Numbered from the stretch's first letter, positions 24,735-64,000 are shown. The stretch is 64,000 bases of DNA from a virus (IMGVR_UViG_3300044611_001018), one strand, 5' to 3'. Numbers and translations are program-made. The notes: a model not told the origin generated them from the sequence alone.

Positions 24735-24739
24735 AACGA

Positions 24740-27388: not shown

Positions 27389-28263
27389 TTTGGCAACACC
27401 TTTTTATCATACTGTGGCAACTGTACTTGCATCATCTCATGAACAGATCCACCATAACTCAGGATATCATCTGCAGTATATTTGTGACTATTATTTTCCC
27501 ACCATTTTTTTATACATGATGTAGCCAAAATATCATAGATTTTATTGTGATATGCACTGATTATAGGATCATACTCTTCATCATTTTCTATATTTTCAAT
27601 CTTATTATCTGGTGCAATAGCTAGTTTAGGATCTAAACAAAACAAAGGTAACGTGTAAGACTTTCCTATTTGATAGAGCAAAAAGTCATCACTACTATAG
27701 GATTCCCTAGGAACTTTCATATCCCTAAGACTATTATCAAGTTTAAATGTGCCATCAGATTTTAAATGTACTTTGATTAGTTTTTCAACAAAAAATCTAT
27801 TAACAATAAAACAAGCAGCAGAGGAACTATGCCACTCTCTTGGATGCAAATGCATCTTTAACACATGATCGTGACAATAATAAAATTGAACAATGTCCCA
27901 ATTATACGGCAAACTCTTCATCACCATTTCCCAATCAAAAGGCCAATATTCAACTAAGTCAAAACAAAGGTCATCTTGAACTATCATGCAAACATCAGAT
28001 ATCCCAGACTCATACCATTCAATTAAGGTAGTAAATTCATTCATTACAATTGATGCATCAGATGGTGCAAGAAGCATCAAATCTAATTTATGTGCCCATT
28101 CATCTATTTTTGCTGTTGAAAATCTAGAGGCAGAGACTCTAGTAAAATCAGTTATTCCCCATTTTTTAAATTGACCCTCGATATGTTCTTTTCTATCCAA
28201 TCTATGGTCTAGGTTCAAATAAAAAATAGGAGGCAAACCTTTTAATTTATTATCTAAATTCAT
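27385..28263 (-). CDS. GT25-like glycosyltransferase, paralogue 5
   Basis: FYLNLDHRLDRKEHI, MIVQDD, LPYNWDIVQFY. Confidence 0.75.
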   Translation of the reverse strand: MNLDNKLKGLPPIFYLNLDHRLDRKEHIEGQFKKWGITDFTRVSASRFSTAKIDEWAHKLDLMLLAPSDASIVMNEFTTLIEWYESGISDVCMIVQDDLCFDLVEYWPFDWEMVMKSLPYNWDIVQFYYCHDHVLKMHLHPREWHSSSAACFIVNRFFVEKLIKVHLKSDGTFKLDNSLRDMKVPRESYSSDDFLLYQIGKSYTLPLFCLDPKLAIAPDNKIENIENDEEYDPIISAYHNKIYDILATSCIKKWWENNSHKYTADDILSYGGSVHEMMQVQLPQYDKKVLPK

Positions 28264-28880
28264 TTTTTAAATACCTCCATATTAGGCAAGAAGGGATAAT
28301 CCAAATATTGAAATCTTTTTGGTTTTTTAAATGCCACATCATTAAATTTTTGAATGCCTAAAGATGCAGTTTCTGGCGTCATATAATAATGATAACCAAT
28401 CATATCTATATTCTGTTCTCCCCATGGTTTATCGTTAGTTCTTCCATCATAAACCATTTTTTTAAGCGTCGTATATGCCTCCTTATCATCCAATAATATA
28501 ATTCCACCACGACCAAGATTTAAATGCTTCTTAAATTGAAAACTAATGCACATATATGTACCAGGAATATATGTATTCTGCTCCCATAAAACCGCAGCAT
28601 CAATTATATTAGTATTCCAAAGATAATAATAATCTGTCCAAATATAATTTTTTTTCCATGTCCATTTTATACCCAATTTTTCAGCAGTAAATGGAATAGA
28701 AATATAAGTGTGCTCTGGTATTTGTATATCATTATACTTTTCATATCTAAGACATAACTCTATAGCATGAGTACAACAATCCGTTGCCACAGCATAAGGT
28801 GCATTAAAAAAATTAGATATTATTTTTTCAAACCTATTAACTACATCAAATTCCATTTTCATAAAGATTGTAATCCTCAC
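28260..28880 (-). CDS. Shortened DegT/DnrJ/EryC1/StrS PLP-dependent aminotransferase
   Basis: YAVATDCCTHAIEL, IIDAAV, SFQFKKHL (PLP Lys), GRGGII, GYHYYM; only 206 aa. Confidence 0.75.
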   Translation of the reverse strand: MRITIFMKMEFDVVNRFEKIISNFFNAPYAVATDCCTHAIELCLRYEKYNDIQIPEHTYISIPFTAEKLGIKWTWKKNYIWTDYYYLWNTNIIDAAVLWEQNTYIPGTYMCISFQFKKHLNLGRGGIILLDDKEAYTTLKKMVYDGRTNDKPWGEQNIDMIGYHYYMTPETASLGIQKFNDVAFKKPKRFQYLDYPFLPNMEVFKK

Positions 28881-29577
28881 TATACAAATTGTTAAATTCT
28901 TCTAAATCTGGTTCAACATAGTCTTGATATATTTTTTTACATATTGAACTGTAATTGGGCATAAAATATTTTGAATTTCTTAAATGAGGAATTTCAAATG
29001 ATTTATATTTTACTCTTTCAATATCATCTTGAATATTAGTTCTTATAAAATTATTAACTTTAAATGTCATATCTCCTTCCAATTTTATTAATTTAAGATT
29101 TCCTTTGTTCTCAAGACACAATCTTAGAAATAATTTTTGAGGAGCTGTATGTTCATCATAGATGTACTTTTTATTTTTAACTTGTTTAACAACCCATTCA
29201 ATAGGTGGTTTATATCTACACATAAATTCATTCAATCCAGATATCCATCTTTTAGTAGGATCCCTAGTAATTGCAAAGAATATATGTTCAGATTCTACAA
29301 AATATTGTGCTAAAAAATCTGGGTCTTTTGCTCTTGGTAATTTATCTAATGGGATGAAATTTGGACAATGAGCATTAAATGCTGTAGTAATAGAAGTACT
29401 ACCACACTTATCAACATGCATAAAAACTAATTTATAATTTTTTGCCCAGTAGCAATTTACAAATCCTTCTTTATGAATAACTTGTCCATCTATACCTTTT
29501 TGTAACTTAAAAGTAAATGCAGAGCAATGTTTTGAACATTGTTCTACAATATCATCTATGACTGCTCTTCTTTTCAT
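28846..29577 (-). CDS. Sulfotransferase (family 2-like)
   Basis: 5'-PSB FMHVDKCGSTSI and 3'-PB RDPTKRWISG; HTAPQ. Confidence 0.7.
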   Translation of the reverse strand: MKRRAVIDDIVEQCSKHCSAFTFKLQKGIDGQVIHKEGFVNCYWAKNYKLVFMHVDKCGSTSITTAFNAHCPNFIPLDKLPRAKDPDFLAQYFVESEHIFFAITRDPTKRWISGLNEFMCRYKPPIEWVVKQVKNKKYIYDEHTAPQKLFLRLCLENKGNLKLIKLEGDMTFKVNNFIRTNIQDDIERVKYKSFEIPHLRNSKYFMPNYSSICKKIYQDYVEPDLEEFNNLYSEDYNLYENGI

Positions 29578-30089
29578 ATCGTTGCTGTTATCTGCATTGT
29601 ATATCTATTTTCATCTCCAAGGTTTGCTGCCATATGTGGTGCATCTCCTCTCCACATATAACAATCACCCTTCTTCCAATTAACAATTGGTGTTCGGTTC
29701 AATTCAAAATAATGCCCAGATTTCCAGTCATTTAAAAAGATTAAAAATCTACACACATTATTTTGGTCTTCAATATTATATACCTTTCTATATCTAGGAT
29801 ACGTATCTTGGTGTTCTGGCATAATAGTTCCAGGTGGCATACAATATACGGACAAAGAAGTATTTTTTACTTGATGTTCCTTTTTAATTTCATTCACAAT
29901 ATCATGACACCATTGTGGAACTCCTCTATATTCTTCCCTTAAAAGACCAGTATAGTTCACATACAAATGCCCCAATGATTTCCACCGATTAACGGTTTCA
30001 TCATCAGGGAATTGTCTTCTATCTGGATATTCTATATTAGTATAATCTCCGATTATATCGGGATTTATGCTTTTTACTCTATAATTCAT
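29574..30089 (-). CDS. 2OG-Fe(II)/cupin oxygenase-like protein
   Basis: MPPGTIMPEHQD, W.KGD..W....PHMAAN.G...RYTMQIT. Confidence 0.6.
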   Translation of the reverse strand: MNYRVKSINPDIIGDYTNIEYPDRRQFPDDETVNRWKSLGHLYVNYTGLLREEYRGVPQWCHDIVNEIKKEHQVKNTSLSVYCMPPGTIMPEHQDTYPRYRKVYNIEDQNNVCRFLIFLNDWKSGHYFELNRTPIVNWKKGDCYMWRGDAPHMAANLGDENRYTMQITATI

Positions 30090-43536: not shown

Positions 43537-44670
43537 TCAGAATGGGGTGGGTTGGTCAATGTATTCTGCAGTCAGTTCAGGACCAGTAGAAGGCATTTGG
43601 AAGTCAGCATCCACTTTATCATACAGTTCCAGGAAGGACTGTTTGGTTTCGTCATCAAAACGATTCACACACACTTGGATTGCCTTTGCCTTGTCTTGGA
43701 AGATGCTATAAGCACGAATGATATGGACAAGACGGCGGGTGCTAATGATTTCATCAATACCACCATCGTAGAAGGTCTTGCGAATGATGTCTGCCCAGTC
43801 AACCAGGCGCTTACAGAAGTCGCGGTCTTCCACGCCAAGGTCCAGAGCAATGCCTTCCAGAATCTTCTGTTCAGTAGCAGGAGCAGGATAGGACTGCTCA
43901 AAGGTCACAGGGAAACGCTCAAGGAATGCTTCGTTGAGAACGTTAGTGCCGATGAAGCGACCATCATCACTACCCTTACCTTTGGTGTTAGCGGTAGCAA
44001 CAACGTTGAAACCCGCAGCGGGTTTGACATACTTACCAATTTTCTTAAGGAAGACACCCTTGCCTTCCAGAACAGACTGAAGGCAGAGGATTTTATTGGA
44101 GGCAAGGTCAATCTCATCCAGAAGCAGAATTGCACCACGTTCCAGAGCTTCCACAACAGGACCATTGTGCCAAACGGTCTCACCATTCACCAGACGGAAA
44201 CCACCAATCAAATCATCCTCATCAGTCTCAATCGTGATGTTGACACGAATCATCTCACGCTTTAGTTGAGCACAAGCTTGTTCCACACTGAACGTTTTAC
44301 CATTACCCGAAAGACCCGTAATGAACGTTGGATAAAACAAACAGGACTGAATAATACGTTTAACATCTTTAAAATTACCAAACTGGACGAAGGTATCATC
44401 TTTGTCAGGAATAAGATTTTGTTCGATGGAAGGAAGAGCAGAGGGAGACTGGAATGTACGTTCAATTTCATTGACTCGCTCTTGGGTTACCTCAAGATTC
44501 CAACGCCCACGAGAAGTTTTAAATTGCTCAAGGCGACGAGTCACTGTCTGATAATTCAGACCATGAGAAGCACAGAAACCCCTAAGATCGCCAGAAGTAA
44601 TTTCAGAACCATAAAGTTCTTTGATGCTATCAAAAAGGGCTTCGTCGTTCACAGAAGATTTGCGAGACAT
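43537..44670 (-). CDS. cobS: MoxR/CobS-like AAA+ ATPase
   Basis: GLSGNGKT, LLDEID, ATANTKG, NEAFLERF, ISTR. Confidence 0.85.
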   Translation of the reverse strand: MSRKSSVNDEALFDSIKELYGSEITSGDLRGFCASHGLNYQTVTRRLEQFKTSRGRWNLEVTQERVNEIERTFQSPSALPSIEQNLIPDKDDTFVQFGNFKDVKRIIQSCLFYPTFITGLSGNGKTFSVEQACAQLKREMIRVNITIETDEDDLIGGFRLVNGETVWHNGPVVEALERGAILLLDEIDLASNKILCLQSVLEGKGVFLKKIGKYVKPAAGFNVVATANTKGKGSDDGRFIGTNVLNEAFLERFPVTFEQSYPAPATEQKILEGIALDLGVEDRDFCKRLVDWADIIRKTFYDGGIDEIISTRRLVHIIRAYSIFQDKAKAIQVCVNRFDDETKQSFLELYDKVDADFQMPSTGPELTAEYIDQPTPF

Positions 44671-50200: not shown

Positions 50201-51247
50201 TTAGATTAACTCACAAGCTTGTTTATATACTTGTTGAATGATTCTTTTTACAGATGCTTTATTTATTGAGTCTTCAAAATCATCAACATACTTATTTAAA
50301 ATAGATACTGTATCTTCCGATTCTAAATCATATTCTTCATTTAAAGTTGTCGAGTCTGCGAAAGATTCTACAATTTTTAATTCTGCAATATTTGTTAGAT
50401 AAAGTTTGTCAATAAATTTTTCAAATTTTTTTTCATCTGTCTTTTTCTTGACTATCAATTTTACAATTTTATTTTCATAATTTCTTACATCAAATGTTTG
50501 ATAATTATTATCATCATAATAAATTGTTTCATGCATCGTATAAGGATTATTTACTGACTGTAAAGAACGAGTTTCTGTGTCAAAAATATGAAATCCACGA
50601 GTATCTCCAATATCATTAGAGTATATTTCGTATGGATTACCCAAGTAAAAAACCTTACCATTATCAGAGCGAGTGTGGTAATGTCCAGAAAAAACTAATT
50701 CAAATTTATCAAACAACTTAGAATCCATACCTTCTTGCATAGTAAAACCACGGTATGGTGGAAATCCAGAAAGTTCAAGATGCCCCATAGCACATGTACA
50801 ATTCGTAGATTTTACTGTTTTAAATGTTTCCTCAAAATTTCCTTCATTAATCCAAGGAATAAAAAGAACTTTGAGTTTATCAAGTTGTACTTCTGTTGGT
50901 TTGGAATATACCTTTACGTTTTCATATTCTCTTAAAAGAAGATCTACAGCATTAATCTCATTAGTATTCTTGTAATATGCTGTATGATTACCAACTATTG
51001 TATGAACAGTAACTCCAATTTTTTCTAAATTGTCGTAATAATTATCTTTTGCCCATGCAAGAGCAGCAAAATCAATTCCCTTTCTACTATCAAAAGTATC
51101 TCCCATATCTACAACGGTTTTAATACCATTTTTGATTAGGGTTGGGAAAAAGATATCATTATAAAATTTTAAAAAATAATCATGAAAAAGTTTAGAGTTT
51201 TTACGAGCACCAAAATGTTGGTCTGTAATAATTGCTACTTTCATCAA
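50201..51247 (-). CDS. gp47: Recombination endonuclease nuclease subunit (Mre11-like)
   Basis: TDQHFG, MGDTFD, GNH, GHLE, SGHYH. Confidence 0.95.
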   Translation of the reverse strand: MMKVAIITDQHFGARKNSKLFHDYFLKFYNDIFFPTLIKNGIKTVVDMGDTFDSRKGIDFAALAWAKDNYYDNLEKIGVTVHTIVGNHTAYYKNTNEINAVDLLLREYENVKVYSKPTEVQLDKLKVLFIPWINEGNFEETFKTVKSTNCTCAMGHLELSGFPPYRGFTMQEGMDSKLFDKFELVFSGHYHTRSDNGKVFYLGNPYEIYSNDIGDTRGFHIFDTETRSLQSVNNPYTMHETIYYDDNNYQTFDVRNYENKIVKLIVKKKTDEKKFEKFIDKLYLTNIAELKIVESFADSTTLNEEYDLESEDTVSILNKYVDDFEDSINKASVKRIIQQVYKQACELI

Positions 51248-51738
51248 TATCTAGATTTGGAATGAATATTATCCTTAATGGAATTATAGTCAGAATAATT
51301 CATACCGTCAATGAGGTTATCATCAAAAAAGACTTCATCAAATCCAGTCCTTTCCAAAATTTTATTTTTAATTTCTAATTGCTTTTTCTCTTTTTGAATT
51401 CTACGCAAAAAAGCATAGTGTATAATCTGAGTAAAATAAGCAAAGGGATTTTGAGATTTCTCTGGATCAAAATTATGAATGTACATCACACAATTTTCTA
51501 TGCCATCAGAAATCATATCATCTTTAAAGATGTAATTGACAAAATTAGGTTTAAATGATAGATGAGTTGCTATTTTTAAAAAGCACTCTCCCAAATAATT
51601 TGTAATTTGTGGTTTAGGATCTCCACGCTCTTGAGCTGCACTCAACTGCTTTCTATACTCAATCAAAGCTAAAAGAAATTCCTTGTTATTAACGTAGTGA
51701 ATTGATCTCTTTCTTTTAGGCACTGCCTGGATACCCAT
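51244..51738 (-). CDS. gp55: Late transcription sigma factor
   Basis: HYVNNKEFL, IATHLSFKPNFVNY, NPFAYFTQI..AFLRRI. Confidence 0.95.
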   Translation of the reverse strand: MGIQAVPKRKRSIHYVNNKEFLLALIEYRKQLSAAQERGDPKPQITNYLGECFLKIATHLSFKPNFVNYIFKDDMISDGIENCVMYIHNFDPEKSQNPFAYFTQIIHYAFLRRIQKEKKQLEIKNKILERTGFDEVFFDDNLIDGMNYSDYNSIKDNIHSKSRY

Positions 51739-54166: not shown

Positions 54167-54726
54167 AATTTATTTCCTTTTGGGTCATATATATCGTAAA
54201 TAGTATACTTGAAAGATACCTCTGCAGTAAAGTATTCTACATCTGGATTGGTAGCATCAAATGTTAATTCTGACAAATCATATGGAAACATATCTTTAAA
54301 TATAACATCAAACTGTGGTCTTTGATTGCTATTCAAAATTTGCAAAGTTCCATCAGAATAAATGTTCATGGATTTGCTATCAAATCCTAACTGAGTATTA
54401 TCTTGTTTTTGTAAGTTATAAATTTCTTCTAATGACTCTGGAAATCCAAGACCACGCATCCATCTTTGAATCTCCATATAATTTTCTAAATTCTCATCTA
54501 CAATAAATCTTAGAGTAAAATCTTGAAATACTATTTTATCTCCTGGAATATCAATATTTTTTAGATAAGTTGGTTGCTCTGCAACACCTAAAGTCATTCC
54601 TGGTATATTTGCAGAGTTAGAAAAGAATGATACTTTACGTGCTCTATTCAAAGTAAATTTGAATGCAATAGAAGATAGAAAATTTCTATTTTGGATTTGA
54701 TTACTATAAAGATTACCTGTAGTCAT
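54163..54726 (-). CDS. gp3: Tail completion / sheath stabiliser protein
   Basis: NFLS..FKF..ANIPG.TLG..PGDK..F.VDE.L.NY.EI..W; CTAAATA at 54738-54744. Confidence 0.85.
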   Translation of the reverse strand: MTTGNLYSNQIQNRNFLSSIAFKFTLNRARKVSFFSNSANIPGMTLGVAEQPTYLKNIDIPGDKIVFQDFTLRFIVDENLENYMEIQRWMRGLGFPESLEEIYNLQKQDNTQLGFDSKSMNIYSDGTLQILNSNQRPQFDVIFKDMFPYDLSELTFDATNPDVEYFTAEVSFKYTIYDIYDPKGNKL

Positions 54727-54746
54727 TGTTTTCTAACTATTTAGAT

Positions 54747-54773
54747 AAAAAAAGAGACCCTTTCGGGTCTCTT
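54747..54773 (-). terminator. gp23 terminator
   Basis: agagaccc-gaaa-gggtctct plus T tract. Confidence 0.85.
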
Positions 54774-54792
54774 GATTAAATTGTGACCAGAC

Positions 54793-56202
54793 TCACATGA
54801 GGTTCTTGATTTGAACTCTTCTGTAGTAACGGTTTGCGTTAACTTGAAGTCTGCCGAGACCCTGAGTGGTGCCTTCAGCGAATGGGTTAGCAACAAGACC
54901 GTATCTGGTCTTAAAGCCAATCTTAGGCTGGAAGGTGTTCTCACCAACGGCACGAACCATTTGGAGAGGAACGTAAGGGCAATAGAACAGACCTGCATCA
55001 TAAGGGGAAGAACCCTTATAACCAACAACGTAGTACTGGTTAGCAGATACGTTTGCTGAATAAGGATCGATATATACGCGATACTTACCAAGCAGAACAC
55101 CCGCAAAGGTGTTACCAGTGTCATCAACGTTGAGGTTTGCGTTCAGAGCAGGAGTGTAATCAAGTACACCAGCCATGCTCAGTGCAGAAGCAACGTCTGC
55201 GGAACACATAACAACGTTACCCTTTCCTCTACGAGTTCTTTGTGCGATTGCGTTAGCATCACGCTCGATTTGGAACAGGAGACCCTTGAACTTTTCAACT
55301 GACCAACGACCATTGGAGTCGATGTCGAGGTCGAATACACCAGCGGTAGCAGTGTTAGCAGCAGCACCTTGCTCAGCAACCTTGTAGATGGTTCTGATGA
55401 CTTCTCTGTTGATTTCTGCGAGGATTTCAGTAGAGAGAATGTTAGCAAGTTCTGCTTCTGCATTCAGACCGTGAATTGCCTTCAGGTCTTGTGCAAGCTC
55501 AAGACTGTATTCTGCCTTCAGTGCTCTTGACTTTGCTTCAACAAGGACTTTCTCAATTGAGAATGCCATTTCGTTGAACTGGTTACCTGCACCGTTACCG
55601 AGATTCTCAGAATCTCCAGTGTACATACCCTGACCAACGTTGTAACCATCAGAACCAGTTGAAGAACCAGTACCAACTGGGTTCAGAAGACCTGGGTTTG
55701 AACCATACTGAGTAGTAGTACCCATACCAGCAGCAACGTTAGTTGCAGCGGTGAGACCAATACCAGAGTTCTGACCAGAGAATACTGTATCTGCTTCGTT
55801 AAACAGAGCTTCAGTGCCGCTCTGGTTGGTGTAGCGTGAACGCATTGCGAAGATGAGTCCAGTAGGACCACTCATTGGTTGAACGCCTGCGAGGTCATAT
55901 GCGACCAGGTTAGGCATTGCACGTCTGATGAGTGAAATCAGAACTGGATCAAAACCTGCTACAGGACCTGCAGCAGTAGCGGAACCTGAGAAACCACCTG
56001 AAGCACCAGCAGCGTTTCCGCTATTGGTTGGGGATTCCATCAGCATTCCATTTGAGAAAGCTGATTGCTCTCTCAGGAATTTTTCTTGGTTTTCTAACAG
56101 GACAGCGGTTACTGCTCTTCTGTGTGAATCTTTGATTGGATCAAGACCATCATAGTCGAGAAGTGGTGCCCACTTTTCCTGCAGATGCTCGGATTGGAAC
56201 AT
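54793..56202 (-). CDS. gp23: Major capsid protein
   Basis: LQEKWAPLLD, GVQPMSGPTGLIFAMR, KSRALKAEYSLELAQDLKAIHG, QPKIGFKTRYG. Confidence 0.98.
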   Translation of the reverse strand: MFQSEHLQEKWAPLLDYDGLDPIKDSHRRAVTAVLLENQEKFLREQSAFSNGMLMESPTNSGNAAGASGGFSGSATAAGPVAGFDPVLISLIRRAMPNLVAYDLAGVQPMSGPTGLIFAMRSRYTNQSGTEALFNEADTVFSGQNSGIGLTAATNVAAGMGTTTQYGSNPGLLNPVGTGSSTGSDGYNVGQGMYTGDSENLGNGAGNQFNEMAFSIEKVLVEAKSRALKAEYSLELAQDLKAIHGLNAEAELANILSTEILAEINREVIRTIYKVAEQGAAANTATAGVFDLDIDSNGRWSVEKFKGLLFQIERDANAIAQRTRRGKGNVVMCSADVASALSMAGVLDYTPALNANLNVDDTGNTFAGVLLGKYRVYIDPYSANVSANQYYVVGYKGSSPYDAGLFYCPYVPLQMVRAVGENTFQPKIGFKTRYGLVANPFAEGTTQGLGRLQVNANRYYRRVQIKNLM

Positions 56203-56251
56203 TTGCTTTTACCTTTGTAACGTGTTTGGTTTTGTTTGAATTATATTAAAT

Positions 56252-57511
56252 TCACTTTTTAGCAACTGCTGAAAGTGTTCTGAGATATGAATTCATATAT
56301 TCTGAGGTATAACCAGCAGAATTTAGTTCAACCTCTTCAATTAAACTTTCGGTTTTTGCCTTTGGAGTTTTCTGTGATGAGAAGTATGATTCTCTCAACA
56401 TCTCCAGTTTTTCACGATATTTTTCTCCACTTTCAAACTCAACACTTTCGGCAAGTGAAGCGAGCTTCTCTTTCTGAGAGAGTGCTAGACCCTCTGCTAC
56501 ATCATCAAAGATTCCTTCAGCAACCGACTCTGAGAGGCGCTTGTTTAAAGTAATATTCTTTTCAATCTGCTCGTTGAGTTTTGTCTCCATTTCATCAAGT
56601 TTTTCTACCATGCTCTCAAGAACATCATATTTATCTTCAGGGATTGATACATAATGTGCTTCAAAAAGTTCCTTCATACCTGAGAGGAATGATTCAGTCA
56701 TTTCTGACTTCAGACCGTTCTCAACTACAAGTTGATTTTCGGTCATCCATTCCTCAGCAACGTACTCAAGATATGAATCAACTCTTTCTTCAAGAGCTGA
56801 TTTAATTTCTTGTACTTCTTCTACAAGTCTTGCTTCGTATGCTTCATCATACTGAGTAATGAGTGCTTCTTTGATCTCAGTAACTTTTGATCTTAGAGCA
56901 GCTTCAAAGATGGTACGTGCCTTCTCTTGGAATTCCTCAGAGAGGTCTTCACCATCTAGAAGAGCATTAACATCTTCTTCAATGTCAAACTCTTCTTCTT
57001 CTTCTTCTTCCTCTTCGTCTTCGTCTTCGTCTTCTTCAACCTCTTCCTTCATCTTCTTCTTCTTTTTGTCCTCACCCTTCTCATCTTCATCTTCACCTTC
57101 TTCATCCTCTTCATCCTCTTCATCTTCTTCTGCAGCTTCTGCTACAATCTCTTCATCTTCAAGAATCTCTTCTTCATCAAGGAGATCTTCAGAATCTACT
57201 TCTTCCTCTTCCTTAACAGCATCGCTCTTCTTAAGACCTTTCATTGGGTCTGCTGCCTTAGCGCCCTTGTTAACAACATTTCTTACTTGTTGAAGGGTTT
57301 TGCCTGGAGTTTTGAGTTCTGCAGAATTATCATCTGAACGATAATTTTCTGGAGTAGGACCACCAAGGTCTTCCCAAGAACCTGTTTGACCTGCTACTGC
57401 GCCAGGAGCGAGCTTTTGCATTGGATCGCCTGCCTTTGCACCTGCATTGACAGCGGTCGAGGATTGCTTTGTGCCTGCTTCCATTTCGTGTAAATTGTTG
57501 CCACTAGACAT
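56252..57511 (-). CDS. gp22: Prohead core scaffold protein
   Basis: Long acidic tract; F.EKA.TIFEAA; YLEYV.EEWM.EN; position between gp21 and gp23. Confidence 0.92.
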   Translation of the reverse strand: MSSGNNLHEMEAGTKQSSTAVNAGAKAGDPMQKLAPGAVAGQTGSWEDLGGPTPENYRSDDNSAELKTPGKTLQQVRNVVNKGAKAADPMKGLKKSDAVKEEEEVDSEDLLDEEEILEDEEIVAEAAEEDEEDEEDEEGEDEDEKGEDKKKKKMKEEVEEDEDEDEEEEEEEEEFDIEEDVNALLDGEDLSEEFQEKARTIFEAALRSKVTEIKEALITQYDEAYEARLVEEVQEIKSALEERVDSYLEYVAEEWMTENQLVVENGLKSEMTESFLSGMKELFEAHYVSIPEDKYDVLESMVEKLDEMETKLNEQIEKNITLNKRLSESVAEGIFDDVAEGLALSQKEKLASLAESVEFESGEKYREKLEMLRESYFSSQKTPKAKTESLIEEVELNSAGYTSEYMNSYLRTLSAVAKK

Positions 57512-58243: not shown

Positions 58244-58513
58244 TTAATTTGTAAATCCTACTTTTGTTACTTTTATTGATGATGCTGAAGCCCAAATAAT
58301 ATCAGTAGGTAATTTTTGTACAAATTCAACAGCACCAGTGGGCAAGGTAAATGAATAAGATGCACTTGCCCCAACAGATTCTGAAATTACAATTGTAGTT
58401 GCTGCACCAGCTCCATTGTATAATCGTACACATGTTGCAGAAAGTATACTTGTTCCAGCACCAGAAGAAGTTGCTAAATCAGTTTCTATAGAAAGTGGTT
58501 TTGTTACTTGCAT
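58244..58513 (-). CDS. Hypothetical beta-rich protein
   Basis: ATAAATA at 58540-58546; lies in the head module. Confidence 0.6.
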   Translation of the reverse strand: MQVTKPLSIETDLATSSGAGTSILSATCVRLYNGAGAATTIVISESVGASASYSFTLPTGAVEFVQKLPTDIIWASASSIKVTKVGFTN

Positions 58514-58555: not shown

Positions 58556-58717
58556 TTATTCTGCATCTAGTGCAATGGAATCAAACATTGAATTTGAAAC
58601 GGATGGTCTCAACACTTCGATTTTTTCTGCTGAGCGAGTGTAGAGCAAATCTTTAATCTTATCAGAAATTGTAGATGGTGCTTCATCACCAACAATCATA
58701 TCTAGAAGTTCTTCCAT
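58556..58717 (-). CDS. Small acidic prohead-core-like protein (53 aa)
   Basis: Manual translation MEELLDMIVGDEAPSTISDKIKDLLYTRSAEKIEVLRP...; occupies the T4 gp67/gp68 position. Confidence 0.6.
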   Translation of the reverse strand: MEELLDMIVGDEAPSTISDKIKDLLYTRSAEKIEVLRPSVSNSMFDSIALDAE

Positions 58718-58741
58718 TGATATTCTCATGAATTACTCTAG

Positions 58742-58756
58742 TATTTAGAATAAATA
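58742..58756. promoter_or_regulatory. Back-to-back divergent late promoters
   Basis: CTAAATA on minus (58742-58748) and ATAAATA on plus (58750-58756). Confidence 0.6.
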
Positions 58757-58781
58757 GATGACGGGTAAAATATATTTGATT

Positions 58782-59678
58782 ATGAGTTGTGATAAATTAA
58801 AAAATTTCCCTCATGTATTTTATTTTACTTTAGACAATGAAGTAAAACGACAAAAATATATGGAGGAACAATTTAAATTATATGGCATTACATTTACAAA
58901 AATCTCAATGCCATTGGGGTTTCCAGAATACTTAAAGGAAAAAATATTAGATGTTCATTCAGAATTAGCATCTAAACGATGTTTAGCATACAATTATTTT
59001 TTAATTGATACTTTAAGAAATTGGTATTTTGAAACAAATGAATCTTATGTAATATTAATGGAAGATGATTATGATTTGAGTTTTATCAATCATTGGCATT
59101 TTAGTTGGGATGATCTATTAACATATCTTCCTTATGATTGGGATTCTATACAATTGGGACATGAGTGCCCAGACATAGTTAGATTTTATTTGCATCCAGT
59201 TCAAAGTAATTATTCTCTTGGTCCAGTATTATTAAAACGAGAACATGTTGAAAAACTTTTGAATCTTTTTTATATCAATGGTAGATATAAATTTAATGGA
59301 GTTGTTGCCAACTCAATTTATATCAATAGAGAATCTGGAATAGGCGATAATTATTTCTTTAACGATCTTGCAGGGACTCCAGATTATTTTTTATGTCAAA
59401 CTGGGAATACGTATACTGTACCATTAATTCCATGTAATCCTTTTTTTAAAGGATCAACTCATGTTACTGAATGGTATCCAATGAAATCTTTTATTTGTTG
59501 TTATGAAGCATATAAAGAATGGTGGGAAAACGACAAAGATAATTTTAGTTTAAATGATTTTTTTAGTTTTGGTAAATCCAATGACAACTTAATGGAGAGA
59601 GATATTAGGCGATGGGACGATAAATATTTCCATCAAAGAGCAATCGAACAACATAATAAGGTTATCTCTACGTTATGA
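58782..59678 (+). CDS. GT25-like glycosyltransferase, paralogue 6
   Basis: FYFTLDNEVKRQKYM, ILMEDD, LPYDWDSIQLG; start re-assigned to MSCDKL by alignment with paralogues. Confidence 0.75.
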   Translation: MSCDKLKNFPHVFYFTLDNEVKRQKYMEEQFKLYGITFTKISMPLGFPEYLKEKILDVHSELASKRCLAYNYFLIDTLRNWYFETNESYVILMEDDYDLSFINHWHFSWDDLLTYLPYDWDSIQLGHECPDIVRFYLHPVQSNYSLGPVLLKREHVEKLLNLFYINGRYKFNGVVANSIYINRESGIGDNYFFNDLAGTPDYFLCQTGNTYTVPLIPCNPFFKGSTHVTEWYPMKSFICCYEAYKEWWENDKDNFSLNDFFSFGKSNDNLMERDIRRWDDKYFHQRAIEQHNKVISTL

Positions 59679-61480
59679 AAAATATATATTTTATCCAACC
59701 ACAATATAGTGTTAATGTAAGAGACACTAAGAATTATTGGATGCCTTATAGTGTTTCTTGCTTATGGAGTTATTGTAAACAATTTAAAGATATAGCAGAG
59801 TCATTTGAGTTAAAAGATATTATCTTTAAAAGAGAAAATCCAGAAGAACTGCTAAAAAGATTAGATAATCCTACAATTTGTGCTTTTAGTTGTTACCTAT
59901 GGAATGAACAATATAATCTACACCTTGCTAAACTAATAAAACAAAAATATCCAAACTGCATTATTGAATTTGGTGGTCCCCAAGTAACCGCAAAAATGAT
60001 GGAAGAAAATCCATTCATTGATTGTGTTATTCTTGGTGAAGGTGAAGAGGCATTTTTAGAATTATTGAGATGCATTAATACTGGAAATCCAATCAATAAA
60101 GTTCATGAAAGAACGAGGATAAATTCTTTAGACTTTAAAAGTCCCTATCAATCTGGAGTCTTTGATTGGTTATATGATAAAAATCCAGATGTTATTTGGG
60201 CAGCAATTTTAGAAACAAATAGAGGTTGTCCTCACAGATGTACTTTTTGTGATTGGGGTGGAACAACTATGAGTAAAATTAATACATTTGGACTAGAGAG
60301 AGTCGCTGAAGATATTGAATGGATACGAACACATAGAGTTGCTTATGTCTTATGCGCTGATGCAAACTTTGGAATATTTAAAGAACGTGATATTGAAATA
60401 GCAAAAATGTTGCGTAAAGCAGCTGAAAATAGTTTAATTCTAGACAATATAGATTTGCAGTATTCAAAAAATTCAAACGAATCTGCTTTTGAAATAGCAA
60501 AAATTATGGGAGAATACTCTAGAAGAGGAGTTACTTTGAGTGTTCAAAGTATGAATATGCCGACATTAAAAGCTATCAAGAGAAAGAATTTACACGTTAA
60601 AGATATTGCTGGACATGTAGAATTAGCAAAAAAACATAATGTAAAATTATACACAGATTTAATTTTGGGGATGCCCGAAGAAACAGTAGATTCTTGGAAG
60701 GATGGAATTGATTTGTTGATGGAAAACGGGCAACATTTTTCTGTAGACTCCTGGTTCTGCCAAGTATTTGAAAATGCTGAATTGGGTAGTGAATTTAGTA
60801 GAAAAACTTATGGTATAAAAACAATTAAAGCAGAAGATTATATATCATTCTGTAATGATGAGTTTGATGCTACAAAAGAATATGTCGAATTAATTTGTGA
60901 GACTGATACAATGTCTAAACAAGACTTTTTTGATGCTCATATGTTTTCTTGGATAACAATTAAATTTCACTATGTTGGATACACACAAATTTTATCCAAG
61001 TATTGTCGCCATGTATTAGGAATAAGTTATAGAAAATTTTATGAATCATTGTATGAATATACAATGAATGATTCTGGATTCTTAGGAACTGAGTTTAGGG
61101 AATATTTAAAGGCAATAAAGGAATACTTTAATACTGGAAAAGTTCCTTCTAACCACTCAAGTGGACATGGATTGGGAGTTGGTATGCCAAATGATACTTT
61201 ATCTAGATTTGAAAATAAAGATAAGATACTAGATTTTGTTGAAAATTTTGCAAGGACAACTTTTAATATAGAAGAAAGTATCTTTGATATCCAGAGAAAG
61301 TTTGTTTATGACCCAGATGTAAATTATCCATATGTTGATAGTTTACCGTTTGACTTAGATACATGGGAAAAAAGAGATACAAAATATTCCATAGAAAATG
61401 AAAGAACCGAAGATGAAAGATATAATTTGTTCGTTATCAAAAGAAAGTATCTTACAAAAAATACAATGGTAAAACTATGA
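59675..61480 (+). CDS. Cobalamin-dependent (class B) radical SAM protein A
   Basis: B12-binding N-terminal domain (AFSCYLWN..GGPQVT..GEGEE); RGCPHRCTFC; DANFG; ILGMPEET. Confidence 0.88.
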   Translation: MKNIYFIQPQYSVNVRDTKNYWMPYSVSCLWSYCKQFKDIAESFELKDIIFKRENPEELLKRLDNPTICAFSCYLWNEQYNLHLAKLIKQKYPNCIIEFGGPQVTAKMMEENPFIDCVILGEGEEAFLELLRCINTGNPINKVHERTRINSLDFKSPYQSGVFDWLYDKNPDVIWAAILETNRGCPHRCTFCDWGGTTMSKINTFGLERVAEDIEWIRTHRVAYVLCADANFGIFKERDIEIAKMLRKAAENSLILDNIDLQYSKNSNESAFEIAKIMGEYSRRGVTLSVQSMNMPTLKAIKRKNLHVKDIAGHVELAKKHNVKLYTDLILGMPEETVDSWKDGIDLLMENGQHFSVDSWFCQVFENAELGSEFSRKTYGIKTIKAEDYISFCNDEFDATKEYVELICETDTMSKQDFFDAHMFSWITIKFHYVGYTQILSKYCRHVLGISYRKFYESLYEYTMNDSGFLGTEFREYLKAIKEYFNTGKVPSNHSSGHGLGVGMPNDTLSRFENKDKILDFVENFARTTFNIEESIFDIQRKFVYDPDVNYPYVDSLPFDLDTWEKRDTKYSIENERTEDERYNLFVIKRKYLTKNTMVKL

Positions 61481-63249
61481 AAAATCTTTACATGCTCCAA
61501 CCACAATATGCGGTTGAAATTAGGAAAGAAGATACTTATTGGTTGCCATATAGTGTCGGATGTTTATGGGCATATTGCTCACAGTTTGAAGATATAGTAA
61601 AAAACTACACATTAAAAGATCTCATATTCAGAAGAGAAGACCCAGAAGAATTAATTGATAGGTTAGATAACCCTGCAATATGTGCTTTTAGTTGTTATGT
61701 TTGGAATGAACAATACAATCTTCATGTAGCAAAATTAATCAAAGAAAGATTTCCAGAATGTATTATTGAATTTGGCGGACCACAAGCAACACATAGATTA
61801 AATGAATATGATTTTATCGACTGTATTATTGTATCAGAGGGTGAGGAAGCATTTTTAGATTTTTTAAGGAAAGTAAATAACAAAGAAAAAATTGACAAAA
61901 TCTATGCAAAAAAAAGAATTGAGGATTTAAACTTTCCAAGTCCATATCAAATTGGGGTATTCGATAAAATTATTGAAGACAACCCAGGTGTTTTATGGGC
62001 AATGACTATGGAAACTAACAGGGGTTGCCCTCATAGATGCACTTATTGTGACTGGGGTGGATTAACTTATACAAAAGTAAGGCACTTTGATATTCAAAGA
62101 GTTAAAGATGATATTGATTGGGCCAGGAAAAACAATGTTGGATTCATTTTTAATGCTGATGCAAATTTTGGTATGTTTAAAGAACGAGATTTAGAAATTG
62201 CAAAGTTATTCAGAGAAGCAGCAGATGAAGGCAATCTTGAAGCAATAAACATACAATACTCTAAAAATTCTACTGAAGTAATTTTTGAGATAGCAAAAAT
62301 ACTTGGAGATATTAGTAGAGGTGTAACTTTAAGTGTACAAACCATGAATGAACCAACACTTAAAGCAATCAAAAGAAAAAATATGAGTATTAATAAAATA
62401 TCAGAACAAATTGAAAAAAGTAAAGAATATGGTGTAAAAACATATACCGAATTGATTCTTGGTCTACCCGAAGAAACTTTAGATACTTGGAAAGATGGGT
62501 TTTCTAAAATTCTTGAATGTGGTCAGCACGAATCTATTGATGTTTGGTTTTGTCAAATGTTTGGTGATACTGAATTAAATAGTACTACTTCAAGGGAAGT
62601 TTATGGAATAAAAACAATTAAAGCGGAAGATTATGTATCTTTTGGAAATGATAGAGATTATGATGGTGTTACTGAAACAATCGAATTAATCTCAGAAACT
62701 AATACAATGACAAATAATCAATTAATTGAAGCGTATATGTATGGATGGTTAATTGTTCAATTTCATATTGCTGGATATACTCAGATAGTTGCTAAACACT
62801 ATTATGAAAATTTAAATATATCCTATCGGGTATTTTATGATACTTTATTTGAATTTATTAAGTTGGATAATGGATTAATAGGTGAACATTATCGTGAGAT
62901 TGAATCTGCGGTAAATCATTATATGAAAACTGGAAAAATATTGAAAAAAGGAAAGCATGGGCATACCTTACATGCGGGAAGTTTTGCTTTTATGTTTACG
63001 CATAAGGATGAAATTTTTAAACTCGTAGAGAATGCAACACAAAAAATAACACCAATCAAAACAGATATTATATCTTTACAACGTGCGTTTATTTTTGACG
63101 AGGAGACTCAATATCCTTTTTATCTCACATGTGAAGATAAAAAGTACAAAATAGATACTGAATTCAAATCATTTGATAAGAATGATCCTCATACTGTGTT
63201 TATTTTGCGGCGCAAAGGTCTATTGAAGAATCAATTATGTAAGGTTTGA
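61477..63249 (+). CDS. Cobalamin-dependent (class B) radical SAM protein B
   Basis: Tandem paralogue; RGCPHRCTYC; DANFG; ILGLPEET. Confidence 0.88.
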   Translation: MKNLYMLQPQYAVEIRKEDTYWLPYSVGCLWAYCSQFEDIVKNYTLKDLIFRREDPEELIDRLDNPAICAFSCYVWNEQYNLHVAKLIKERFPECIIEFGGPQATHRLNEYDFIDCIIVSEGEEAFLDFLRKVNNKEKIDKIYAKKRIEDLNFPSPYQIGVFDKIIEDNPGVLWAMTMETNRGCPHRCTYCDWGGLTYTKVRHFDIQRVKDDIDWARKNNVGFIFNADANFGMFKERDLEIAKLFREAADEGNLEAINIQYSKNSTEVIFEIAKILGDISRGVTLSVQTMNEPTLKAIKRKNMSINKISEQIEKSKEYGVKTYTELILGLPEETLDTWKDGFSKILECGQHESIDVWFCQMFGDTELNSTTSREVYGIKTIKAEDYVSFGNDRDYDGVTETIELISETNTMTNNQLIEAYMYGWLIVQFHIAGYTQIVAKHYYENLNISYRVFYDTLFEFIKLDNGLIGEHYREIESAVNHYMKTGKILKKGKHGHTLHAGSFAFMFTHKDEIFKLVENATQKITPIKTDIISLQRAFIFDEETQYPFYLTCEDKKYKIDTEFKSFDKNDPHTVFILRRKGLLKNQLCKV

Positions 63250-63862
63250 ATGCTTGCAATGCCTCATCCCACAAAATACGATGTTCATAATCTTTATCCT
63301 TGTCAATTAAAGCAATAGTTACTGTAAATCTTTTATCATCTGTTGGATTATGTGAACTATGTAATGGACCAACATTCACTAATCCGCATGTGCCTATCTC
63401 TACCTCATATTCTTTTTTACAGTATTCTTCTCTACTGACTAAAACTTGTCCATGATAATGATCATCAGTTCTATCTCCAACACTATATTGATTACGTTCT
63501 GGTATAACTGTTGAATAAACTTGCTCAGCACTGGTACTTACTCTTAAAACCATATCCGATGTCCACCATCTCATGGTGCTTCCTTTTGCACCAAATTGAA
63601 ATATTAGTTTTGCCCAATCAGCATAATAAACATTATCAGAATGTATAACTCCATCATCATGTGGTGGAGTATAAAAAAATTCTATCCAGTGTGATGTAAA
63701 TCCCAAACTATTCAACCAGGGTAAAATTTTATCATTACCCAGGTCTTCAAATTGAAGTTGTTTATGAAACTCTGGCCATCTCATACCTTCAGTTTGATAC
63801 TTTGATGTATCAATATTAGGGATATAGTCCCTAATATCCAAAAATCTATGATAACGATTCAT
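63200..63862 (-). CDS. Cupin/2OG-oxygenase-like hypothetical protein
   Basis: FFYTPP..G.IHSD (HxD), LHSSHN, RFTVTI. Confidence 0.45.
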   Translation of the reverse strand: MNRYHRFLDIRDYIPNIDTSKYQTEGMRWPEFHKQLQFEDLGNDKILPWLNSLGFTSHWIEFFYTPPHDDGVIHSDNVYYADWAKLIFQFGAKGSTMRWWTSDMVLRVSTSAEQVYSTVIPERNQYSVGDRTDDHYHGQVLVSREEYCKKEYEVEIGTCGLVNVGPLHSSHNPTDDKRFTVTIALIDKDKDYEHRILWDEALQAFKPYIIDSSIDLCAAK

Positions 63863-63865: not shown

Positions 63866-64000
63866 TTAAATTTGTGGCGGTTCTACAGATTTACTTTGAC
63901 TATCTAAGTTTGGTTCGTTAATCGGTGCTCCAAGATTCTGATCTGCGGCAACTGGTTGACCAGTTGCAGGATCAATAGGAGCATTTGGGTCTGGAATAAT
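63866..64000 (-). CDS. gp20: Portal vertex protein, C-terminal end (partial)
   Basis: IIPDPNAPIDPATGQP... Pro-rich tail; synteny upstream of gp21. Confidence 0.65.
   Translation of the reverse strand: MIPDPNAPIDPATGQPVAADQNLGAPINEPNLDSQSKSVEPPQI

Follow-up and report, generated by a model that had tools for sequence, protein, structure and literature searches.

What might two genes for predicted cobalamin-dependent radical SAM enzymes contribute to a virus that carries them, in reversed orientation, among its head genes? The question is raised by a 64 kb stretch of DNA (the window) from an uncultured T4-like cyanomyovirus of a lake. This phage is complete in 19 lake metagenome runs, and relatives occur in Tara ocean samples. 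Some of the hardest C–H functionalizations known are the work of cobalamin-dependent radical SAM methylases; to our knowledge very few of these enzymes have been characterized, and no characterized viral member was found in the literature searched.

Layout and late promoter of the locus

Every long open reading frame between positions 234 and 58729 lies on the minus strand, and the only real plus-strand genes are located at 58758/58782–59678, 59675–61480 and 61477–63249. The sign of the GC skew reverses over exactly this stretch. A preliminary description of the window had noted plus-strand genes in a near-uniform minus-strand region and had identified them as a GT25 glycosyltransferase gene and genes for two B12-type radical SAM paralogues with CxxxCxxC motifs, next to a cupin-like gene; the ORF map, the GC skew, the domains and the folds agree with this description. 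It had also placed the cassette between gp20 and gp21. The trio, a GT25-fold glycosyltransferase gene followed by two radical SAM genes, does not abut gp21, since it sits exactly between the portal gene gp20 and a gene in the gp67 position. The portal gene is represented by its 3′ end (63866–64000, minus strand, cut by the end of the window), which encodes a sequence (IIPDPNAPIDP...) also seen at the C-terminal ends of the Portal_T4 proteins from the relative loci L056, L013 and L015. The left border of the insert is the small head gene in the gp67 position (58556–58729, minus strand, 57 aa, phrog_14164), with a product 56–63% identical to that of the ORF directly 3′ of gp20 in the phages S-B05 and P-TIM68. 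A second small ORF in the gp68 position (58244–58513, minus strand, 89 aa, phrog_19805) precedes gp21; its identity to the counterparts from L006 and L007 is just 47–48%, as against 97% for gp21. Pfam models identify the neighboring head genes as gp21 (PF03420), gp22 (PF25623) and gp23 (PF07068). The insert contains neither a mobility gene nor a compositional anomaly.

The gap between the gp67-position gene and the trio contains a palindromic two-way late promoter (TATTTAG-A-ATAAATA, 58742–58756), which presents (A)ATAAATA to the cassette on the plus strand and (T)CTAAATA to the gp67-position gene on the minus strand. The late-type ATAAATA that had been described directly upstream of the cassette is located at 58750–58756, and AATAAATA lies 25 nt upstream of the ATG at 58782. 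In all 12 of 12 relative loci ATAAATA stands before the first plus-strand gene, whether this is the glycosyltransferase gene or that of the first radical SAM protein (rSAM1), and is itself always preceded by TATTTA; a conserved NATAAATA late promoter sits ahead of the operon of the radical SAM pair in relatives. The uninterrupted junction between gp20 and the gp67-position gene in S-B05 and P-TIM68 carries CTAAATA and TATAAATA. The cassette motif fits the published late consensus of cyanophages, NATAAATA (PMC2984593).

The window also encodes the late sigma factor gp55 (51244–51738, minus strand, phrog_234, E = 1e-66). A NATAAATA core at the right distance together with a phage-encoded gp55 gives the cassette the features of a T4-type late unit. 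Across the window the late motif is rarer than expected (21 copies versus 32.6 expected), with 19 copies on the minus strand and two on the plus strand, both of the latter inside the cassette. The second of these (ATAAATA, 59620–59626, plus strand) lies in the 3′ end of the glycosyltransferase gene, 48 nt before the ATG of rSAM1, and is a possible internal late promoter; it is retained in L005–L007 and reads CTAAATA in L008–L010. From these sequence features we infer that the cassette would be transcribed late. In the sole metatranscriptome with this phage, exact small contigs cover the genes for the glycosyltransferase and rSAM1 at a depth of 2–6 and gp23 exceeds 1000, DNA carry-over being possible; by these contig-based figures the cassette fragments are near background and gp23 is about 1000-fold higher.

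Two cobalamin-type radical SAM paralogues

The gene for rSAM1 (59675–61480, plus strand, 601 aa) overlaps the stop of the glycosyltransferase gene by 4 nt, and the gene for its paralogue rSAM2 (61477–63249, plus strand, 590 aa) overlaps the stop of the rSAM1 gene to the same extent. The two proteins share 51% identity and the CxxxCxxC motif, and both match PF04055 (E = 7e-15 and 1e-15). The cobalamin-binding model PF02310, with a cut-off of 32.1 bits, is matched above this value by rSAM1 (37.5) and below it by rSAM2 (24.3). Both proteins align with the Cbl domain of TokK from residue 22 on, which identifies an N-terminal cobalamin-binding Rossmann domain in each. Both proteins are closest to TokK and CysS; rSAM1 matches TokK (PDB 7kdx) with E = 2.8e-74 over residues 22–475, the alignment stopping at 475 of 601, and CysS (PDB 9n1b) with E = 2e-34. 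The best NCBIfam model for both proteins is KedN5 (NF033712), with 182.2 and 179.6 bits versus a cut-off of 700; since these scores are far under the cut-off, the phage proteins fall outside the KedN5 subfamily. BchE and AprD4 models give weaker matches, and the scores of the models for RiPP and MCR methylases are far lower. On these grounds both proteins are predicted to be class B radical SAM enzymes that use cobalamin.

Enzymes of the TokK branch cleave SAM with a [4Fe-4S] cluster; the resulting 5′-deoxyadenosyl radical abstracts a hydrogen from an unactivated carbon, and the methyl group comes from methylcobalamin. With TokK and ThnK, the iterative C6 methylases of carbapenem biosynthesis, the phage proteins share a three-part layout including the N-terminal Cbl Rossmann domain and the radical SAM core, and in both groups the DxHxxG His-ligand motif is absent. 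The cluster ligands C185, C189 and C192 as well as W76, under the corrin, and W194, which aligns with the active-site W215 of TokK, are invariant in 16 of 16 orthologues; these two tryptophans have been reported as common to TokK, ThnK and CysS only (bioRxiv 10.1101/2021.07.10.451909). In contrast, the substrate anchor R280 of TokK is not kept in these 16 orthologues, the rSAM1 group (r1) having D or V at this position and the rSAM2 group (r2) N, so that TokK tells us nothing transferable on the substrate. The C-terminal substrate domain is not alignable with that of TokK, and the last 100 residues are also the most divergent part between the two phage paralogues (28% identity). In TokK the corresponding region binds the substrate (bioRxiv 10.1101/2021.07.10.451909). 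Unlike the TokK and ThnK genes, the phage locus contains no carbapenem genes and combines a fixed paralogue pair with a late promoter in a head module. CysS, the iterative methylase of the cystobactamid alkoxy group, and KedN5 belong to the same class B branch, and CysS has both tryptophans; the phage locus lacks the NRPS or enediyne context of these enzymes.

The pair occupies the same site in every relative locus examined (L005–L010, L013–L017 and L056–L059), and these relatives come from both lake and ocean samples. In S-B05 and P-TIM68 this junction is uninterrupted. The preliminary description had named a cassette routinely found at this position with a known function as evidence against its reading; within one uncultured clade the position is indeed routine, but no known function goes with it. 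No phage in INPHARED contains the pair, and the phages that hold it form a tight gp23/gp21 group, separate from S-B05 and P-TIM68. The pair is the conserved core of the insert, and the genes for the glycosyltransferase and an oxygenase-fold protein are optional; L013–L017 carry the pair without an adjacent glycosyltransferase gene or other sugar gene.

The 16 radical SAM proteins form one clade with an r1 and an r2 group, the rSAM2 orthologue group having a support of 98/96. The duplication is old by this phylogeny, and both copies have been retained in lake and ocean lineages, with all catalytic motifs intact in both copies in 8 of 8 lineages. The genes of the cassette are under purifying selection, as judged from dN/dS ratios of 0.04–0.05 for rSAM1 and 0.05–0.065 for rSAM2; the pair (0.04–0.07) is similar to gp21 and gp23. 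It is a fixed, strongly selected component of the head cluster in an uncultured clade of T4-like cyanophages, behind a late promoter. In a comparison of L056 with L009, the genes for the glycosyltransferase and rSAM1 form a single divergent block (70–80% nucleotide identity, versus 90–99% in the backbone), and this hypervariability may point to diversifying selection, as known from loci for surface antigens.

Radical SAM cassettes have been described before in environmental genomes of T4-like marine phages, often near glycosyltransferase genes (PMC5332604, PMC7029224), and cyanophage S-SCSM2R encodes a short SkfB/PqqE-type protein of 266 aa without a B12 domain in its hyperplastic region (PMC12801897). 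In contrast to the present locus, these three reports identify no TokK-like cobalamin-type pair and describe none at the junction between gp20 and the gp67-position gene.

Glycosyltransferase and oxygenase-fold protein

The glycosyltransferase gene (58782–59678, plus strand, 298 aa, phrog_2835, E = 4e-28) starts at the conserved position 58782; the ATG at 58758, from which the mechanical ORF runs, stands only 1 nt away from the promoter core, and L006 lacks it. The protein has no Pfam match of its own, and it stays below the gathering score of PF01755. This model is found in eight of 66 homologues, one paralogue matches it with E = 0.0027 across 36 residues, and in the nearest Atlas clusters, which are viral, 11–100% of the members contain it. 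We assign the protein to GT25 because of its fold and these homologues rather than a Pfam match. In a search with its AF2 model (pLDDT 91.5), the best 17 PDB and the best 24 Swiss-Prot matches were all GT25 proteins (COLGALT1, LgtB/E, Lic2B, LpsA), and COLGALT1, bacterial β-1,4-galactosyltransferase and Mimivirus R655 (E = 3e-7 to 2e-5) ranked above other GT-A proteins. Like LgtB/LgtE/Lic2B and COLGALT1, the phage protein combines a GT-A fold with an acidic EDD-x-D motif behind β-strand 89–94 (E94-D95-D96-x-D98; D95 invariant, the others at least 90% conserved), but its sequence is too divergent for PF01755 and belongs to a viral family with six copies in the window. Its dN/dS is 0.10–0.12. 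The other five copies are arranged in tandem in a second glycan cassette (23934–28263, minus strand) and are 27–36% identical to the head-module protein (E down to 2e-60), in line with the paralogy proposed earlier. The relative G002 has the same set of five.

Beyond the trio, a 220-aa protein with the double-stranded β-helix fold of 2OG/Fe(II) oxygenases is encoded on the minus strand (63200–63862), and the 3′ end of its gene overlaps that of the rSAM2 gene by 50 bp. Since this gene shares the strand of gp20 and starts 3 nt behind the gp20 stop codon, it belongs to the transcription unit of gp20 and not to the plus-strand operon. It is the gene that the preliminary description had called cupin-like and convergent. 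Searches of Pfam, PHROG and NCBIfam gave no match, and none of 85 homologues has a Pfam domain. All 46 sequences compared within this family keep H74-x-D76...H168 and R178, which are candidates for an HxD/E...H iron triad and for the basic residue that would bind the C5 carboxylate of 2OG; dN/dS is 0.05. Foldseek relates the AF2 model (pLDDT 92.8) to JmjC-type oxygenases with a probability of 1.0 and E of about 1e-4, the TM-score being just 0.3–0.4; VIA matches it to a non-heme hydroxylase with Z = 8.8 and to proline 3-hydroxylase with Z = 8.7, which is of middling strength. Other cyanophages carry members of this family elsewhere, in early regions.

Substrate and role of the cassette

Clues to the substrate come from gene neighborhoods elsewhere. 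Beside its five glycosyltransferase genes, the other glycan cassette contains a short DegT-like gene (28260–28880, minus strand), a sulfotransferase gene (28846–29577, minus strand) and an AspH-like oxygenase gene (29574–30089, minus strand); homologues of the DegT-like and AspH-like genes flank, and are translationally coupled to, radical SAM homologues in other phage-like contigs. The order in L034 and L035 is epimerase/dehydratase, radical SAM protein, a 166-aa protein similar to the product of 29574–30089 (37% identity, E = 4e-34) and a short DegT similar to that of 28260–28880, with overlapping stops and starts. A radical SAM gene adjoins a short DegT gene, a PNP_UDP_1-family gene and an NTP-transferase gene in L019; six B12-type radical SAM genes accompany two GT2 genes, DegT and a carbamoyltransferase gene in L018; and an epimerase gene and a short DegT gene lie about 4 kb from the radical SAM gene in L071. 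This neighborhood is not general for short DegT genes, as none of ten more distant short-DegT loci has a radical SAM gene within 6 kb. The nearest cellular homologues (33–41% identity) come from gut Clostridia (Acutalibacteraceae and related MAGs), where TokK-like genes form arrays of adjacent paralogues, as in the phage; these bacterial arrays differ from the phage pair in lacking any phage context and in adjoining PAP2, FemAB and further radical SAM genes. Their context points to the cell envelope, not specifically to sugars.

The idea of the preliminary description that one pathway is split across the two loci is partly supported, as this coupling and the joint variation of the glycosyltransferase and rSAM1 speak for it. 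Against it, sister lineages have the pair without an adjacent glycosyltransferase gene, GT25-like genes are present in 98 phage records without the radical SAM genes, and the oxygenase family has other positions in other cyanophages. The interpretation of the preliminary description as a whole is partly supported too.

As the best reading we propose, tentatively, that the radical SAM pair C-methylates a sugar or glycan late in infection, modification of a protein being possible as well. Both the methylation chemistry and the sugar substrate are predictions; we favor the latter because homologues elsewhere adjoin sugar-nucleotide genes, including homologues of the window's other glycan cassette. 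An anciently duplicated pair from the TokK/ThnK/CysS/KedN5 branch would have entered the junction between gp20 and the gp67-position gene in reverse, in the ancestor of the clade, and a gp55-type late promoter, palindromic with that of the head-core genes, would drive it. The present sub-lineage would have gained the GT25-fold glycosyltransferase gene ahead of rSAM1 and the oxygenase-fold gene behind gp20. The two enzymes might alkylate a sugar at two different positions or stages, adding methyl or longer branches to carbon, either on a nucleotide sugar or on the growing glycan of the GT25-rich pathway of this phage, and this alkylation would proceed late in infection with pseudocobalamin from the host. 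Against a sugar substrate, the characterized members of the TokK/CysS branch all act on small molecules other than sugars, a sugar does not explain why the pair keeps its place in the head module, L013–L017 have no sugar neighbors and the Clostridia context is not sugar-specific. More broadly, the cassette probably represents an undescribed late step of sugar or virion tailoring.

If a sugar or virion component is methylated, phages would prove to tailor their surfaces or glycans in a new way, and the TokK/CysS branch would gain a new substrate class. Cyanophage reproduction would also demand pseudocobalamin directly, beside the long-puzzling phage cobS. The window contains this usual cyanophage "cobS", a cobS-like AAA+ gene (43537–44670, minus strand, PF07728 and CbbQ_C) that scores 68 bits against TIGR01650, far under the cut-off of that model.

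Radical C-methylation of the virion by a B12-dependent mechanism, either on side chains of head proteins or on a capsid glycan attached by the GT25 protein after hydroxylation by the oxygenase, is somewhat unlikely; if true, a widespread clade of cyanophages would need host pseudocobalamin for maturing its particles or recognizing its hosts. Modification of a virion protein by the cassette while the head is assembled, with hydroxylation by the oxygenase, glycosylation by the GT25 protein and C-methylation of side chains by the radical SAM pair, we consider unlikely. Each of the last two activities has a parallel, as collagen galactosyltransferase glycosylates hydroxylysine, and Mmp10 and PoyC C-methylate amino-acid side chains. 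Points in favor of this scheme are the conserved place of the pair among the head morphogenesis genes, where late promoters point both ways, the presence of human COLGALT1 among the best fold matches of the glycosyltransferase, the resemblance of the oxygenase model to the protein hydroxylases NO66, MINA53, YcfD, AspH and proline 3-hydroxylase, and the predicted cotranscription of the oxygenase-fold gene with the portal gene; glycosylation of virions by phage glycosyltransferases has a precedent in mycobacteriophages, according to Freeman et al. 2023 as cited in PMC12801897. However, the nearest characterized radical SAM enzymes methylate small molecules instead of peptides, the RiPP and MCR models score far lower, the window has no collagen-like Gly-X-Y repeat, and many phages with the pair lack the glycosyltransferase and the oxygenase. 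In addition, other phages carry oxygenase homologues in their early regions, the oxygenase model has fold matches of middling strength (Z below 9), and the outgroup contexts are those of sugar-nucleotide genes.

Alkylation of a small molecule other than a sugar, such as a secondary metabolite, cofactor or lipid, would make the pair an auxiliary metabolic or "antibiotic-like" function at a permissive site. The characterized close relatives TokK/ThnK, CysS and KedN5 are all iterative enzymes acting on small molecules, the outgroup locus L023 combines tryptophan halogenase, AdoMet decarboxylase, class-III aminotransferase and further radical SAM genes, and L013 has other genes too in the junction. 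Nevertheless we regard this as rather improbable, given that no cyanophage locus has a carrier protein, NRPS/PKS or other biosynthetic partner near the pair, that the substrate-binding residue of TokK is absent, and that a conserved late promoter and a place in the structural module are unusual for metabolic genes of cyanophages.

Chemistry other than methylation (C–S or C–C bond formation, rearrangement or dehydration), or a noncatalytic partner role for one copy, appears more improbable still. The class does include OxsB, BchE and ThnL, a B12-type enzyme that forms a thioether (PMC9407657), and fused twin proteins in metagenomes (P0208, 1283 aa; P0214, 1271 aa) make paired action plausible. 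Yet both copies keep all catalytic motifs in eight lineages under equally strong purifying selection, and neither W76 nor W194, the tryptophans typical of methylases in the TokK/CysS branch, varies. Finally, a selfish or neutral passenger without a role for the phage, as the opposite orientation, the absence from INPHARED phages and the mosaic recombination within the cassette might suggest, has next to no chance, since dN/dS ratios of 0.04–0.12 over all four genes already contradict it and the insert has no mobility gene or compositional anomaly, while its promoter is conserved and both paralogues have been kept since an old duplication in lake and ocean lineages.

Insertion site and late promoter

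The window phage is a T4-like cyanomyovirus that shares 82.7% gp23 identity with Synechococcus phage S-B05, and all of its credible genes from 234 to 58729 lie on the minus strand. Toward the right end these are, in order, UvsW, UvsY, gp3, gp23 (PF07068), gp22 (PF25623), gp21 (PF03420), an 89-aa ORF at the gp68 position and a 57-aa ORF at the gp67 position (58556–58729). They are followed by three plus-strand genes coding for a glycosyltransferase (GT, 58758/58782–59678) and two cobalamin-type radical SAM paralogues (rSAM1, 59675–61480; rSAM2, 61477–63249). Stop and start codons overlap by 4 nt at both internal boundaries (GT/rSAM1 and rSAM1/rSAM2), and the sign of the GC skew flips across exactly this block. 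The last feature is the C-terminus of the portal protein gp20. These observations confirm the genes and the plus-strand cassette in the head module as reported in the preliminary description, with four corrections. First, the cassette had been placed between gp20 and gp21; the insertion is real, but the 57-aa and 89-aa ORFs precede gp21. The 57-aa ORF is a homologue of the small gene found directly 3′ of gp20 in S-B05 and P-TIM68 (56–63% identity), where just a short spacer with a late-type motif divides the two genes. Therefore, the 5.1 kb in the window represent an insertion at the gp20/gp67-position junction. Second, the gene described as cupin-like (220-aa ORF, 63200–63862) is indeed convergent with rSAM2, but it starts 3 nt from the gp20 stop on the strand of gp20 (minus) and thus goes with the portal gene, not with the plus-strand operon. 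The other two corrections concern the GT start and the grounds for its assignment to GT25 (see below). No composition signal of foreign DNA was seen in the cassette, which has a GC content of 28–32%, like other non-structural parts.

Several features of the surrounding region were also recorded. The segment with gp23 and gp22 (54500–57500) has a GC content of 40–48% versus 28–32% around it. The 89-aa ORF (58244–58513, minus strand) is 47–48% identical in the relative loci L006 and L007, whose gp21 is 97% identical, and neither L009 nor L010 has a detectable match; apparently, this small head-core gene has been replaced among close relatives. In the relative loci L013 (6185–7780) and L014, the head-module genes at the gp68 and gp67 positions are separated by homologues of a window virion structural protein (phrog_1645, 234–2168, minus strand) and of its 109-aa neighbour. 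Other insertions are therefore accepted around this junction too. The convergent coding overlap between rSAM2 and the 220-aa ORF spans 50 bp (63200–63249) and is kept in L005 and L056; it measures only 17 bp in L013, and in L015 there is a 4 bp overlap against gp20. We found no convincing terminator between the convergent genes, and neither sigma-70 promoter-like nor terminator-like sites were enriched. The predicted late transcripts of opposite strands must collide at this overlap.

The motif ATAAATA is rarer in the window than expected (21 copies versus 32.6), and its strand bias is strong: the minus strand has 19 copies, most of them immediately ahead of a gene. The only two plus-strand copies, at 58750 and 59620, both lie within the cassette. 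The former is embedded in TATTTAG-A-ATAAATA, so that the opposite strand reads CTAAATA 12 nt ahead of the 57-aa gene. ATAAATA with the preceding TATTTA is kept upstream of the first plus-strand gene in 12/12 relative loci, whether this gene is GT or rSAM1, while the spacer around it has diverged. The cyanophage late consensus is NATAAATA (PMC2984593), and gp55 is encoded in the window. Thus, promoter conservation, the fit to the consensus and the presence of gp55 make late transcription of the cassette a prediction that is well supported by sequence, and the late promoter originally noted directly upstream stands. The second copy (59620–59626, plus strand) lies in the 3′ end of the GT gene, 48 nt ahead of rSAM1. 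The closest relatives retain it, in L008–L010 the sequence is CTAAATA, and it may represent a remnant or a reserve copy of the promoter from which rSAM1 is directly transcribed in GT-less phages.

One aquatic metatranscriptome (X20) contains the phage, with a gp23 depth of >1000 at ≥99% identity. In this data set only small exact contigs cover GT and rSAM1, at a depth of 2–6 that is no higher than that of early genes. Coverage of gp23 is about 1000-fold deeper than that of any other window gene.

The encoded proteins

Both radical SAM proteins contain PF04055, and the match to the B12-binding domain PF02310 is above the cut-off for rSAM1 and below it for rSAM2. Full-length identity between the two is 51%. 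The closest solved structure for both is TokK (7kdx, E 2.8e-74, residues 22–475), followed by CysS (9n1b, E 2e-34). Among NCBIfam models, that of the KedN5 family (methylcobalamin-dependent C-methylases) scores best, with 182 and 180 bits; as its cut-off is 700 bits, the phage proteins are relatives of the KedN5 subfamily, not members. According to the TokK structure paper (bioRxiv 10.1101/2021.07.10.451909), Trp76 below the corrin and Trp215 in the active site are common to TokK, ThnK and CysS and absent from other B12 radical SAM methylases. None of the 16 aligned phage orthologues departs from these two Trp residues or from the three cluster cysteines. In contrast, the substrate anchor Arg280 of TokK is lost: the rSAM1 orthologues (r1) have D or V at this position and the rSAM2 orthologues (r2) have N. 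The paralogues diverge most in their C-terminal 100 residues (28% identity), and in TokK the substrate is bound by the C-terminal region (same paper). The phage proteins thus fall into an established enzyme class and are predicted to use cobalamin and to methylate. The same genome encodes, besides these two putative B12-dependent enzymes, the usual cyanophage "cobS", an AAA+ gene at 43537–44670 (minus strand) with AAA_5 and CbbQ_C domains that scores 68 bits with TIGR01650 (cut-off 558). Two-module fusions of B12-dependent radical SAM enzymes occur naturally (P0208, 1283 aa; P0214, 1271 aa), the former on the 60-kb outgroup contig L018 beside five further genes of this type.

A Pfam search with the GT itself gave zero matches. 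The protein matches phrog_2835, and PF01755 is present in 8 of its 66 database homologues. An AF2 model (pLDDT 91.5) is nearest to solved and predicted GT25 enzymes, including COLGALT1, LgtB/E, Lic2B, LpsA and Mimivirus R655, and all other GT-A proteins rank behind. The phrog, the PF01755-bearing homologues and the predicted fold support the earlier assignment to GT25. The start had to be corrected to the conserved position 58782, since the ATG at 58758 is 1 nt off the promoter core and missing in L006. The GT is 27–36% identical to the five tandem GTs of the other glycan cassette (23934–28263), in agreement with the paralogy previously described.

The 220-aa ORF has 85 homologues, none of them annotated, with the invariant residues H74-x-D76...H168...R178. 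Its confident model (pLDDT 92.8) adopts a double-stranded beta-helix fold, with 2OG/Fe(II) oxygenases as the top structural matches, at intermediate strength. Other cyanophages carry members of this oxygenase family at different sites, close to thyX, phoH and gp32.

Distribution and evolution

Nineteen metagenome runs from lake water contain the complete stretch. The same four genes occupy the same place in six IMG/VR contigs and in Tara and other marine contigs (rSAM1 73% identical). More distant contigs, from NCBI metagenome assemblies and including assembled contigs of 254 kb and 307 kb, have the rSAM pair at the same junction without the GT (rSAM1 49–56% identical); L013 and L014 retain the oxygenase, and L015–L017 have neither GT nor oxygenase, so that rSAM2 adjoins gp20. 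In a maximum-likelihood tree 16 phage rSAM proteins form one clade (support 100/99), within which r1 (85/79) and r2 (98/96) make up separate groups. This split indicates that a single duplication preceded the divergence of the pair-holding phages. Against the closest relatives, dN/dS is 0.04–0.05 for rSAM1, 0.05–0.065 for rSAM2, 0.05 for the oxygenase and 0.10–0.12 for the GT, compared with about 0.025 for gp21 and 0.064 for gp23. Based on these values we reject the idea that the cassette is passenger DNA.

Pair-holding phages are 89–98% identical among themselves in gp23 and 82–97% in gp21, versus 80–85% and 65–70% to S-B05 and P-TIM68. These values make the rSAM pair a marker of a single uncultured clade. 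The pair is absent from all phages of the INPHARED collection: tblastn with rSAM1 returned one 27% match to a faecal phage fragment and zero cyanophages, the corresponding search with the oxygenase among phage records gave zero matches, and a megablast comparison of the region with 50,697 phage records yielded just a 48-bp match in gp21. G001, a fragment of 19.7 kb from the other GT cassette, is the nearest record and has no rSAMs. The GT-adjoining radical SAM gene of S-SCSM2R is not equivalent, because it codes for a short enzyme without a B12 domain.

Within the clade the cassette is mosaic. Between the relative loci L056 and L009 nucleotide identity is 96–99% in gp21 and about 90–94% in most of rSAM2, the oxygenase gene and gp20, with a sharp fall to 70–81% in exactly the GT and rSAM1 block (L056, 1997–4590). 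Such a pattern is like that left by an exchange of allelic blocks or by diversifying selection. rSAM1 occurs as three allele classes that are about 50–56% identical. Novel features are the occurrence of a TokK-like pair in a virus, the constant position of this pair among the head genes, the bidirectional late promoter and the hypervariability of the GT–rSAM1 block; the searchable literature yielded no description of any of them.

Candidate substrates

The nearest rSAM homologues beyond the head module (35–46% identity) occur in sugar-nucleotide contexts. The outgroup loci L034 and L035 have overlapping genes in the order epimerase/dehydratase, rSAM, 166-aa gene and short DegT. Their 166-aa gene is a homologue of window 29574–30089 (E 4e-34), and their short DegT is a homologue of window 28260–28880 (E 4e-32 and 5e-44). 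L019 additionally has an NTP-transferase in the rSAM neighbourhood, L018 combines six B12-dependent rSAMs (one being the fused twin of 1283 aa) with two GT2 genes, a DegT and a carbamoyltransferase, and L071 repeats the epimerase and short-DegT arrangement. The closest cellular homologues form multi-copy arrays in gut Clostridia, adjoining PAP2 and FemAB genes, and the cyanophage pair is often found without an adjoining sugar gene. As far as gene neighbourhoods tell, the link between rSAMs and sugar genes is real but not general.

Our best reading, which we hold tentatively and at somewhat less than even odds, is that two sub-functionalised TokK-like enzymes would methylate carbon atoms of a sugar or glycan in a late, B12-dependent step, and that the GT25 of this sub-lineage would handle the same glycan. 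The original interpretation is upheld in part. Its late promoter, insertion and GT paralogy stand, and the proposal of one pathway split across two loci gains some comparative support from the homologues of window genes in L034 and L035, but nothing demands a pathway in common with the other glycan cassette, since only the rSAM pair is conserved as a unit. Modification of a virion protein is unlikely; collagen-like Gly-X-Y runs are absent from all frames of the window, which speaks against a target of this kind. Alkylation of a small molecule by the pair is more doubtful, even though the rSAM homologue in L023 stands in a mixed tailoring context instead of a sugar-nucleotide one. That the rSAMs would catalyze a non-methylating reaction is improbable.

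The short DegT failed as a general rSAM marker: ten loci with 53–60% identity have no rSAM within 6 kb. This protein measures about 194–207 aa, roughly half the normal length of a DegT/DnrJ/EryC1 aminotransferase, and many viral contigs conserve it in this short form (window 28260–28880, minus strand; L019, L034, L071, L046–L055). It may constitute a distinct small family, not a truncated gene. L071, titled Haliscomenobacter sp. MAG, looks phage-like around the rSAM homologue, with genes for GTP cyclohydrolase I, a 5′-3′ exonuclease, a short DegT and several rSAMs; it could be a prophage, or phage DNA that was binned wrongly.
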